Source: Patescibacteria group bacterium (lineage in GTDB: Bacteria; Patescibacteriota; Microgenomatia; UBA8517; UBA10165). Taken from it: DNA of 49,593 bases. The stretch spans positions 1-49,593 of the forward strand of contig JBBTXW010000006.1 in assembly GCA_038062025.1 (NCBI GenBank), read 5' to 3'. The translations under genes were made by a program, and so were the position numbers. Shown here one piece after another: positions 18,896 through 19,567 of the stretch (positions are counted from its first letter, which is position 1; each line of letters starts with the position of its first letter). Under the pieces are notes generated by a model that had not been told where the DNA came from, did not search any database, and saw only the letters and a list, made by a program, of their open reading frames with translations.

Positions 18896-18908
18896 TTGTA
18901 ATAAGAAC

Positions 18909-18956
18909 CTGCTAAAGCAGAACCTTGCTGCTTCGCAGTAGCGCAATTTATTGCGC
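18909..18956. repeat. Solo REP-like hairpin module in the tuf leader
   Basis: ctgc-taaa-gcag (18909..18920), ctgc-ttc-gcag (18928..18938), and agtagcgcaatttattgcgc (18937..18956). The last is identical to 15302..15321. Confidence 0.7.
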
Positions 18957-18983
18957 GCTCATATATTGTAAGGTTTTCTTGTT

Positions 18984-19015
18984 AAAAAAACAAGCGACCA
19001 GCAATACCACTGGTC
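18984..19015 (-). terminator. Hairpin + U7 in the tuf leader (terminator/attenuator-like, or a 5' stabiliser)
   Basis: Minus strand: GACCAGUGGUAUUGCUGGUC, then GCUUGUUUUUUUAAC. Confidence 0.5.
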
Positions 19016-19024
19016 TAAATAAGT

Positions 19025-19053
19025 ATTGTAACGAGGCTGTATGAGTTTGTCAA
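19025..19053 (-). promoter_or_regulatory. Consensus-like promoter upstream of tuf (TTGACA-17-TACAAT)
   Basis: -35 at 19053..19048 and -10 at 19030..19025 on the minus strand. Confidence 0.5.
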
Positions 19054-19176
19054 CACTTTAAAACTCGCACCTTCTGGACTATACTTGCCATGTACATTGA
19101 ATCTAAAAACAGGAGTGGTTTAGAGCTTGTCGCACGCCGCAGAGGTCATACGCAATCTAAAAAAGGAGAACGCAAC

Positions 19177-19482
19177 GTGATAAACATTGCAGATTTCGAG
19201 AAGTGTGTAAAGGACGCACGCACCGTACTTGCGGATGCGAACAGGTTCTATCAGAGAATTCTTGCGGCAAGGCAGGGAAGCGGCCACAACCAAGACGAGC
19301 TGGCGCGGGCTTTTCAGGCACGCAACCAAGCTCAAGAGAGGTACCAGTCTGCCGCGTTTTTACTCGGATATGTAAGGAAGGCGCCAGAATTGGCGGAGCG
19401 CCTTCGGTTTACTCGCTGGATGGTCGAGAACGGCAAGCTCTCGGACTGGAATGTCACCAGCGATATAAAGACTGGCACATAA
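19177..19482 (+). CDS. Hypothetical helical protein (about 101 aa), G+C-rich, opposite strand to the operon
   Basis: GTG at 19177 is preceded by AAGGAGAA plus 6 nt. The track ORF starts at 19090. My hand count for 19301-19400 is 57/100 G+C. I recognise no motif. Confidence 0.5.
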   Translation: MINIADFEKCVKDARTVLADANRFYQRILAARQGSGHNQDELARAFQARNQAQERYQSAAFLLGYVRKAPELAERLRFTRWMVENGKLSDWNVTSDIKTGT

Positions 19483-19493
19483 GTTCTGCTCTA

Positions 19494-19546
19494 AAAGCCG
19501 AGGGGTTAATACGTAATTAATTACGTATTTATTTCCTCTCGGCTTT
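19494..19546. terminator. Long hairpin between the convergent orphan ORF and fusA (candidate bidirectional terminator)
   Basis: aaagccgagggg...cctctcggcttt encloses the perfect 18-nt palindrome tacgtaattaattacgta. The flanks are U-rich on both strands. Confidence 0.55.
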
Positions 19547-19567
19547 CTTCGCGCTAATCCACTAATT

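Follow-up and report, generated by a model that had tools for sequence, protein, structure and literature searches.

We analysed a contig of 49,593 nucleotides (nt) and 42% G+C from a groundwater member of the Patescibacteria, hereafter called the window (all coordinates are window positions), and focused on the spacer that separates the translation-factor genes fusA and tuf in its str operon. The closest elongation factor G (EF-G) proteins (89-90% identity) carry the name Candidatus Blackburnbacteria in their sources. The operon is encoded on a single strand (minus) in the order rpsL-rpsG-fusA-tuf, and comprises the genes for ribosomal proteins S12 (22340-22789) and S7 (21828-22298), the fusA gene for an EF-G of 723 amino acids (aa) (19568..21739; NCBIfam TIGR00484, 4.5e-300; Pfam GTP_EFTU, EFG_III, EFG_IV and EFG_C; stop codon 19568-19570), and the tuf gene for an elongation factor Tu (EF-Tu) of 394 aa (17711..18895; NCBIfam TIGR00485, 4.7e-220; ATG 18895-18893). 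A tuf gene of 394 aa is called at the same place in L001, and the S10 gene follows tuf on the minus strand at 17383-17694. Contiguity of fusA and tuf would be expected of a str operon, but here the two genes are apart: the exact gap between them is 672 nt (18896..19567; an earlier note on this DNA had estimated about 670 nt), and within it lie a hairpin (-27 to -30 kcal/mol) and a convergent open reading frame (ORF). The G+C content of the spacer is 0.46 overall; it rises from 0.40 in the 194 nt next to tuf to 0.51-0.53 in the ORF and drops to 0.39 in the 85 nt next to fusA. The spacer sequence is identical over its full length in five other assemblies of the same population (ENA and Logan), some of which cover both junctions. 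A mis-assembly can therefore be excluded, since independent assemblies (ENA and Logan) from the one site carry identical sequence across both junctions.

The convergent ORF and the hairpin next to fusA

The small ORF lies on the plus strand, opposite to fusA and tuf (19177..19482). It begins with a GTG codon at 19177, ends with a TAA stop codon at 19480-19482, and encodes 101 aa with the C-terminal motif RLRFTRWMVENGKLSDW. A longer form of 130 aa (19090-19482) would result from a start at the in-frame ATG 19090. A Shine-Dalgarno (SD) sequence, AAGGAG, was read from the sequence 8 nt before the GTG codon (19163..19168, plus strand); this is the same site that the earlier note had given as AAGGAGAA-6-GTG. 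SD-like motifs appear scarce in the window, where they precede 4 of the 31 longest-ORF starts (starts not curated) and none of tuf, fusA, and rpsG; the small ORF carries the canonical AAGGAG. Further upstream, a promoter-like site, TTTAAA-17-TATACT, is predicted on the plus strand (19057..19085; 9/12 consensus positions), and is followed by a leader of 85 nt. The promoter-like site stands back to back with the promoter of tuf, with 3 nt (19054-19056) separating it from the tuf -35 hexamer.

The composition of the ORF differs from that of its surroundings. Counted from the GTG codon it contains 53% G+C versus 42% in the window, and the earlier hand count of 57 G+C in the 100 nt at 19301-19400 was exactly reproduced. 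Its G+C content at third codon positions (GC3) is 0.56 versus approximately 0.35 in native genes. Under a codon model derived from the window's long ORFs, the small ORF scored +0.084 log-odds units per codon, the top value of the six frames (reference values, 0.31 +/- 0.11 for native genes and -0.56 +/- 0.26 for the wrong frames of native genes). When the spacer was shuffled 2000 times with its dinucleotides preserved, 21 shuffles gave an ORF of at least 130 codons (p ~0.01). The four ORFs of the insert that overlap the small ORF in other frames gave no Pfam match. The G+C-rich patch was also searched as a structured RNA, and no Rfam match was found at E <= 1 in the region 17000-23000 nor at the gathering score in the whole window; a tRNA/tmRNA search likewise found none. 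The two points on which the earlier note had let its case for an inserted gene depend, absence of the ORF from relatives and presence of a coding signal, both came out in its favour, and we consider it likely that the small ORF is a real gene of foreign composition.

Between the ORF and fusA lies a two-tier hairpin, which we regard as a putative bidirectional terminator (19494..19546; outer stem AAAGCCGAGGGG/CCTCTCGGCTTT). It folds with -29.8 kcal/mol on the plus strand (z -7.4) and -27.4 kcal/mol on the minus strand (z -6.5), and thus forms a stable G+C-rich stem-loop of the kind found in intrinsic terminators. The earlier note had located this hairpin correctly and had described a perfect palindrome of 18 nt within it; the inner perfect palindrome in fact measures 22 nt (19508..19529) and is made of the halves AATACGTAATT and AATTACGTATT. 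A second copy of the hairpin was not found in the window.

The predicted protein and its C-terminal motif

The product of the ORF is a basic protein of approximately 11.6 kDa with an isoelectric point (pI) of approximately 9.6. The AlphaFold2 model, computed without an alignment, has disordered residues 1-30 and helices at residues 33-63 and 67-113, with a block-averaged predicted local distance difference test score (pLDDT) of approximately 75-92 over residues 31-100. The predicted fold is therefore an antiparallel helical hairpin with a conserved RLxFxRW[LM]VExGxLSDW helix at its end; the earlier note had described a helical protein of about 101 aa and had proposed structure prediction as a check. 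Because the predicted helical hairpin begins just after the GTG codon, and because the N termini of the proteins described below align to the GTG form, the GTG/SD start is supported.

At the level of full-length sequence the protein is an orphan, confined to contigs from Hainich aquifer samples (ENA and Logan assemblies). A word-indexed search of 5.8 billion proteins returned the ORF itself as its sole match, and HMMER, run exhaustively against 1.84 billion cluster representatives, retrieved no full-length homologue, only the ORF itself and a motif-only match to P0002 (E 2.9e-4), a fragment that resembles the ORF in the C-terminal stretch only and in which this stretch is present twice. Searches against Pfam, NCBIfam, PADLOC, PHROGs, and PDB sequences gave sub-threshold noise only, the best matches being Ubiq_cyt_C_chap (0.011) and the HlyD alpha-hairpin (6e-4, far under the cut-off). 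Foldseek searches with the model of the protein retrieved generic alpha-hairpins only, with MexA at the top (E 0.18).

The C-terminal motif was found elsewhere. A word-indexed search with an alignment of the motif gave nothing usable, and a degenerate-pattern scan of metagenome contigs recovered ten loci with it. Three of them (L100, L101, and L106; contig G+C 0.67-0.80) encode proteins of 109-123 aa in which a Pro-rich linker joins an N-terminal helical region to a C-terminal RLLFARWLVETGRL[ST]D, and three others (L098, L103, and L104) encode shorter proteins with the same C terminus. In the window ORF the motif ERLRFTRWMVENGKLSDW occupies aa 74-91 of the 101-aa form, at the C-terminal end of the protein, and matches P0002, L098, L100-L104, and L106. 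When a profile of L100, L101, and L106 was run against 6,895 six-frame ORFs, the window ORF ranked first (E 1.5e-7), with most of the score carried by the motif; the N-terminal part of the ORF alone aligned collinearly with this 3-sequence profile at just 8.7 bits. The window ORF, L101, and L106 also gave parallel weak matches to the alpha-hairpin of membrane-fusion proteins. These matches are consistent with a shared coiled-coil hairpin and fall short of proof of homology. No Pfam or NCBIfam model covers the motif family, and its gene neighbours are unrelated (NTP-transferase/PGM; acyl-AMP ligase; XPB/DUF790). The product of the window ORF would probably be a small protein-binding or adaptor protein without a dedicated role in the str operon.

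The tuf control region and the variable junctions of the clade

On the tuf side of the spacer we located a minus-strand promoter, TTGACA-17-TACAAT, with 11 of 12 consensus positions (19025..19053), and a leader hairpin followed by a run of U residues (18984..19015, minus strand). The hairpin, GACCAGU-GGUAUU-GCUGGUC (19015-18996), starts approximately 3 nt past the predicted transcription start, folds with -10.9 kcal/mol (z -3.1), and is followed by U7 at 18990-18984. The succession of promoter, hairpin, and U7 is the one that the earlier note had read on this side. A degenerate second copy of the promoter, TTGTTT-17-TACAAT, was identified by alignment and direct reading (18965..18993, minus strand). 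This degenerate copy is present in the window, L087, and L088, and corresponds in the alignment to the only tuf promoter of L092, L095, and L097. A repetitive extragenic palindrome (REP) comes next, and a further hairpin is formed between the REP and the tuf start (18909..18938); the 66-nt segment that spans the latter and the hairpin of the REP (18900-18965) folds with -14.3 kcal/mol (z -3.4).

The promoter and its leader are conserved. Upstream of tuf, all 7 distinct Blackburnbacteria loci have TTGACA-17/18-TA[AC]AAT, then 6-9 nt, a hairpin of 6-9 bp, and a T-rich run; promoter equivalents were found in L087 (module at 7780-7850), L088/89, L090, L092/93, L095, and L097. The leader hairpins all lie at one distance from the -10 hexamer, although their stems occur in three versions (GACCAG/GGCCAG type, GGACTAG, and CAGGGC type). 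The z scores of these hairpins against shuffled sequences range from -0.5 to -4.3, with stability clear in four or five loci and weak in L087 and L088. Since a relative with a fusA-tuf spacer of just 92 nt has the same module, the promoter and leader predate the insertion and are not its product. The claim of the earlier note that the insertion had uncoupled tuf and given it its own promoter is therefore not supported. As it starts so close to the predicted transcription start, the leader hairpin may stabilise the tuf mRNA at its 5' end; transcripts that come from further upstream it may terminate or attenuate.

Comparison with other genomes showed that the junction is variable. EF-G was used to retrieve 56 loci from species-representative genomes, most of them Patescibacteria. 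Their fusA-tuf spacers had a median length of 488 nt (range 28-3364 nt), and the shortest (28-130 nt) were found mainly in loci from Elusimicrobia, Nitrospira, cyanobacteria, and Firmicutes. In Candidatus Blackburnbacteria and close Microgenomates (EF-G identity 81-90%) the spacers measured 92, 252, 288, 757, approximately 1600, approximately 3700, and more than 4000 nt. The view expressed earlier that fusA and tuf are usually adjacent thus does not hold in this phylum, and because the junction is variable in Patescibacteria a long spacer is by itself unremarkable. The contents of these spacers are unrelated: they are short in L092/93 (92 nt), L090 (252 nt), and L088/89 (288 nt), and reach 757 nt without a called gene in L087; L097 has guaA, L095 an orphan, an opposite-strand ABC-F ATPase, a further ORF, and a Y1 transposase, and L094 more than 4 kb of other genes. 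No homology was found between the window ORF and ORFs in the fusA-tuf gaps of relatives, nor, past the fusA coding end, between the fusA-proximal spacer sequences of the window, L087, L088, and L090. The closest relative, L087 (EF-G identity 90%), has a different G+C-rich insert of approximately 490 nt at the same junction (spacer 7173-7929). This insert contains an opposite-strand ORF of 73 aa (7314-7535) with AAGGAG upstream and a divergent promoter-like site; the ORF is unrelated in sequence to that of the window, and no gene is given in the source annotation.

In fifteen to seventeen Patescibacteria loci of the set, the fusA-tuf gap holds a conserved same-strand small gene of 70-150 aa with a Phd/YefM-like N terminus (L009, L015, L016, L023, L029, L032, L036, L042, L046, L059, L065, L066, L070, L077, and L078, with L013 and L018 as the two further loci). 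The N terminus has the form '...GGKCIIIE..PSYVV...EYE..', and several members have an acidic tail ending in EDLPF. This gene is not present in the window spacer. Elsewhere in the window, a Phd/YefM-type antitoxin gene at 32678-32947 (minus strand; Pfam PF02604, E 5e-15) matches the profile of the gap gene weakly.

The rpsG/fusA and rpsJ/rplC junctions are equally variable in the clade and contain PIN/VapBC, BrnT/CopG, DUF559 endonuclease, methyltransferase, and restriction-modification genes as well as orphans. At rpsJ/rplC, L088, L090, and L092 have PIN/VapBC, BrnT/CopG, or restriction-modification genes or orphans. In the window, the gap of 2.6 kb between rpsJ (S10) and rplC (L3) (14753-17382) contains a DUF5678 protein (17148-17354), a retropepsin-like aspartyl protease (16741-17148), a G+C-rich orphan, and a gene resembling those of REP-associated tyrosine transposases (RAYT). 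The orphan, the second G+C-rich orphan ORF noted here, encodes 270 aa (15777-16589, minus strand; GC 0.57, GC3 0.67); it has no match in Pfam, NCBIfam, PADLOC, or PHROGs, and its 90% cluster consists of four near-identical members only. Because the junctions of relatives hold variable and unrelated cargo, the insertion in the window is one instance of a common pattern of the lineage.

The RAYT-like gene and the spacer are connected by the REP. The copy in the 5' untranslated region of tuf, AGTAGCGCAATTTATTGCGC (18937..18956, plus strand), consists of a 5'-GTAG followed by a 6-bp hairpin and is identical at 20 of 20 positions to the sequence at 15302-15321, inside the RAYT gene; what the earlier note had called a REP-like module is therefore a genuine REP. 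The GTAG tetranucleotide with its imperfect palindrome, GTAG-CGCAA-TTTA-TTGCG, is present at 18938-18955 and 15303-15320, and variants with ATAG-CGAAA start at 15334 and 15665. The REP core GCGCAATTTATTGCGC had 6 matches with at most 3 mismatches in the window versus 0.32 expected. In total, the 49.6 kb contain four REP copies in one orientation. The RAYT ORF contains two of these in frame (15302-15321 and 15334-15353), and a third is found just 3' of its stop codon (15665-15684). The RAYT-like gene encodes 252 aa (14880..15638, plus strand) and lies 3.3 kb from the tuf REP. It matches Pfam Y1_Tnp (6.9e-7) and NCBIfam REP_Tyr_transpos (5.1e-21), the latter with 75.1 bits in two stretches, which is under the curated cut-off of 80. 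Both motifs of Y1 transposases are present, the HUH motif as HYH at aa 58-60 and the Tyr motif as YIHQNP at aa 199-204. Between these motifs the protein has approximately 78 residues more than the NCBIfam model of 146 positions, the in-frame REP doublet included. The resident RAYT gene is the probable source of the tuf REP.

Origin of the spacer and comparison with known systems

We favour, with some reserve, the explanation that the spacer combines an ancestral tuf control region with a lineage-specific accessory gene unit, probably horizontally acquired, at a plastic junction. The site just upstream of the tuf promoter would tolerate cargo; in the clade the rpsG/fusA, fusA/tuf, and rpsJ/rplC junctions all carry variable accessory genes. 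The cargo would be a self-contained opposite-strand unit, composed of the promoter-like site at 19057-19085, the 85-nt leader, AAGGAG, the GTG codon at 19177, the 101-aa ORF, and the shared hairpin. The ORF would be transcribed from its weak promoter-like site and translated by means of the SD sequence and the GTG codon, and the transcripts of fusA and of the convergent ORF would both end at the shared hairpin (19494-19546), whose stems are strong and whose U-tracts are short. As in the relatives, tuf would be transcribed from its own ancestral promoter (19053-19025), and its transcript would open with the conserved stem-loop and U-run; toward tuf there follow the degenerate promoter duplicate and one REP, probably copied in by the RAYT/REP system of the genome. 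Horizontal acquisition appears to be the simplest origin, because the contigs of the ORF's relatives are mostly of high G+C content and the composition of the ORF is deviant. The event would probably have been a gene transfer from high-G+C bacteria to a reduced Patescibacteria genome.

Several observations weigh against this explanation. The 3' tails of the hairpin, UUUCUU on the plus and UUUU on the minus strand, are short U-tracts with interruptions. The hairpin is also missing from the output of the terminator scan, because its inter-arm segment of 29 nt exceeds the loop limit of 3-8 nt used there. The predicted promoter of the ORF is weak, with 9 of 12 consensus positions only. The codon score of the ORF (+0.084) is lower than that of nearly all native gene segments (mean 0.31, minimum ~0) and falls inside the extreme tail of the wrong frames (maximum 0.13). 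Several ORFs of 48-105 aa overlap the small ORF in other frames, as is expected in a G+C-rich patch. The available copies of the ORF, in the five other assemblies, are 100% identical in DNA and thus offer no polymorphism that would speak for selection on the reading frame. The similarity to the motif family rests mostly on approximately 17 residues, the same motif also occurs in unrelated proteins (L105, PHP-domain-like, and L107, AraC-like), and the members of the family have no common gene neighbourhood.

A rival explanation is that the G+C-rich patch is decaying foreign DNA and the ORF nonfunctional, either as a by-product of the low density of stop codons in G+C-rich sequence or as a remnant of a larger gene. 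The barely positive codon score, the overlapping ORFs in other frames, the lack of a full-length homologue among 1.84 billion representatives, the absence of sequence variation among the copies, and the equivalent insert of L087, which has ORFs of 71-89 aa only and no called gene, all fit such decay. However, the length of the ORF is reached in approximately 1% of shuffles, a canonical AAGGAG stands at the proper distance from an in-frame GTG codon, the confident prediction of a helical hairpin starts right after this codon, the C-terminal motif also ends other small proteins of similar layout, and the four overlapping ORFs lack a Pfam match. We regard decay as rather unlikely. Another possibility is that the insert is a regulatory device of the str operon, in which the protein binds the 22-nt palindrome or the divergent promoter region, or in which the convergent transcript acts as an antisense RNA or roadblock, thereby controlling fusA read-through and tuf expression. 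The promoter-like sites of the ORF and tuf are divergent and 3 nt apart, an arrangement typical of regulator-target pairs, the hairpin contains a perfect palindrome, and the protein is basic (pI ~9.6) and encoded between two translation-factor genes. Yet family, PDB-sequence, and Foldseek searches detected no DNA-binding domain in the product, whose predicted fold is a plain helical hairpin, the palindrome is single in the window, and the neighbourhoods of the motif family are unrelated and not next to translation genes. Moreover, relatives keep the tuf promoter and leader without the ORF, which means that control of tuf does not need it. A regulatory device is thus improbable.

We also considered a discrete site-targeting mobile element or its remnant. 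Such an element could be a miniature inverted-repeat or palindrome-associated transposable element (MITE/PATE) moved by a Y1 transposase, a cassette of the integron type whose attC would be the hairpin, or an islet of toxin and antitoxin genes. The RAYT gene and four REP copies, one of them in the spacer, lie in the same 4-kb neighbourhood, and a Y1 transposase is found just upstream of tuf in L094 and L095. In addition, integron cassettes have a similar layout, in which a long imperfect palindrome comes after an ORF, and weak inverted repeats (18913-18923 and 19483-19493) flank the segment. These repeats, however, match at 10 of 11 positions only and are one of many such pairs that arise by chance. 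Moreover, the ancestral tuf promoter lies between them and cannot belong to the insert; flanking repeats were rejected as insertion scars, only weak, chance-level pairs having been found. The large hairpin has no second copy in the window, as already stated. Nor does the unit fit an integron gene cassette, judged by its own signals and the sequence after its stop codon (no search aimed at an integrase was made): the ORF has its own promoter-like site and SD sequence, unlike integron cassettes, and the GTTCTGC that follows its stop codon is unlike the attC R' consensus GTTRRRY. The same applies to a type II toxin-antitoxin module, for which the spacer offers only one plausible ORF and neither Pfam nor PADLOC a toxin or antitoxin match. 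Collections of plasmids, phages, and viral contigs showed no similarity to the insert in DNA or protein. We therefore judge a discrete mobile element improbable as well, and retain an ancestral tuf control region joined to an acquired gene unit as the preferred explanation.

These results correct an expectation that stems from model bacteria: the fusA-tuf, rpsG/fusA, and rpsJ/rplC junctions of Patescibacteria are variable and collect accessory genes. In the clade of the window, transcription of tuf appears to start from a conserved promoter of its own, and the leader hairpin is conserved as well. The results also flag a small-protein motif family that lacks annotation in current databases, and indicate a REP/RAYT system operating in a Patescibacteria genome. 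The understanding of translation-factor operons as such is unchanged. A much bolder proposal, to which we attach little credence, is that the junctions of the rpoBC-str-S10 supercluster of Candidatus Blackburnbacteria and other Patescibacteria are preferred landing sites for self-contained foreign units, situated next to the conserved tuf promoter/5' hairpin/U-run module; that the 101-aa protein is the first recognised Patescibacteria member of an undescribed, widespread small-protein family, whose C-terminal RWLVETGRLSDW helix docks on a conserved cellular partner, possibly a translation factor encoded next to it; and that the tuf leader is a new attenuator-type element.

Among known systems, the window unit is most readily compared with the 'morons' of phages, reportedly independent promoter-ORF-terminator units of deviant composition that sit between conserved genes. 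The unit resembles them in having a single small ORF, a predicted promoter, an SD sequence, a terminator-like hairpin, and a deviant G+C content, in lying between conserved syntenic genes, and in being absent from close relatives; it is thus an autonomous unit of this kind as far as its predicted signals go. It differs from morons in that the host locus is a chromosomal cluster of ribosomal and translation-factor genes and not a prophage, and phage genes or similarity to phages were not found. The motif-bearing proteins offer a second comparison. The RLLFARWLVETGRLSDW small-protein family (L100, L101, and L106, the shorter L098, L103, and L104, and the fragment P0002) resembles the window ORF in size (approximately 100-125 aa) and in having an N-terminal helical region, which a linker connects to the motif at the C-terminal end. 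Identity to the window ORF outside the motif is approximately 26-34% over 75-95 columns, which is not significant alone, and the contigs of the family have 53-80% G+C versus 42% in the host genome analysed here.

REP/RAYT systems consist of repetitive extragenic palindromes and the REP-associated tyrosine transposases. The elements in the window agree with them in being made of GTAG and a short hairpin, in being repeated, and in having a Y1 (HUH) transposase nearby with REPs flanking its 3' end. Unlike in known systems, the window shows four copies, two of which are in frame inside the RAYT ORF, the RAYT score is below the cut-off, and the host belongs to the Patescibacteria. Literature searches on RAYT in Patescibacteria and on fusA-tuf promoters found nothing relevant, and we know of no description of REP/RAYT in this group. 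Secondary tuf promoters exist in model bacteria, within fusA for tufA of Escherichia coli and in the fus-tuf spacer of Bacillus. As in these str operons, tuf of the window has a strong sigma-70-type promoter of its own, which lies downstream of fusA and immediately upstream of tuf. In contrast to both, the promoter of the window clade is followed at a fixed distance by a conserved hairpin and a U-run, and in the window itself the tuf promoter is partly duplicated and set off from fusA by a convergent gene.

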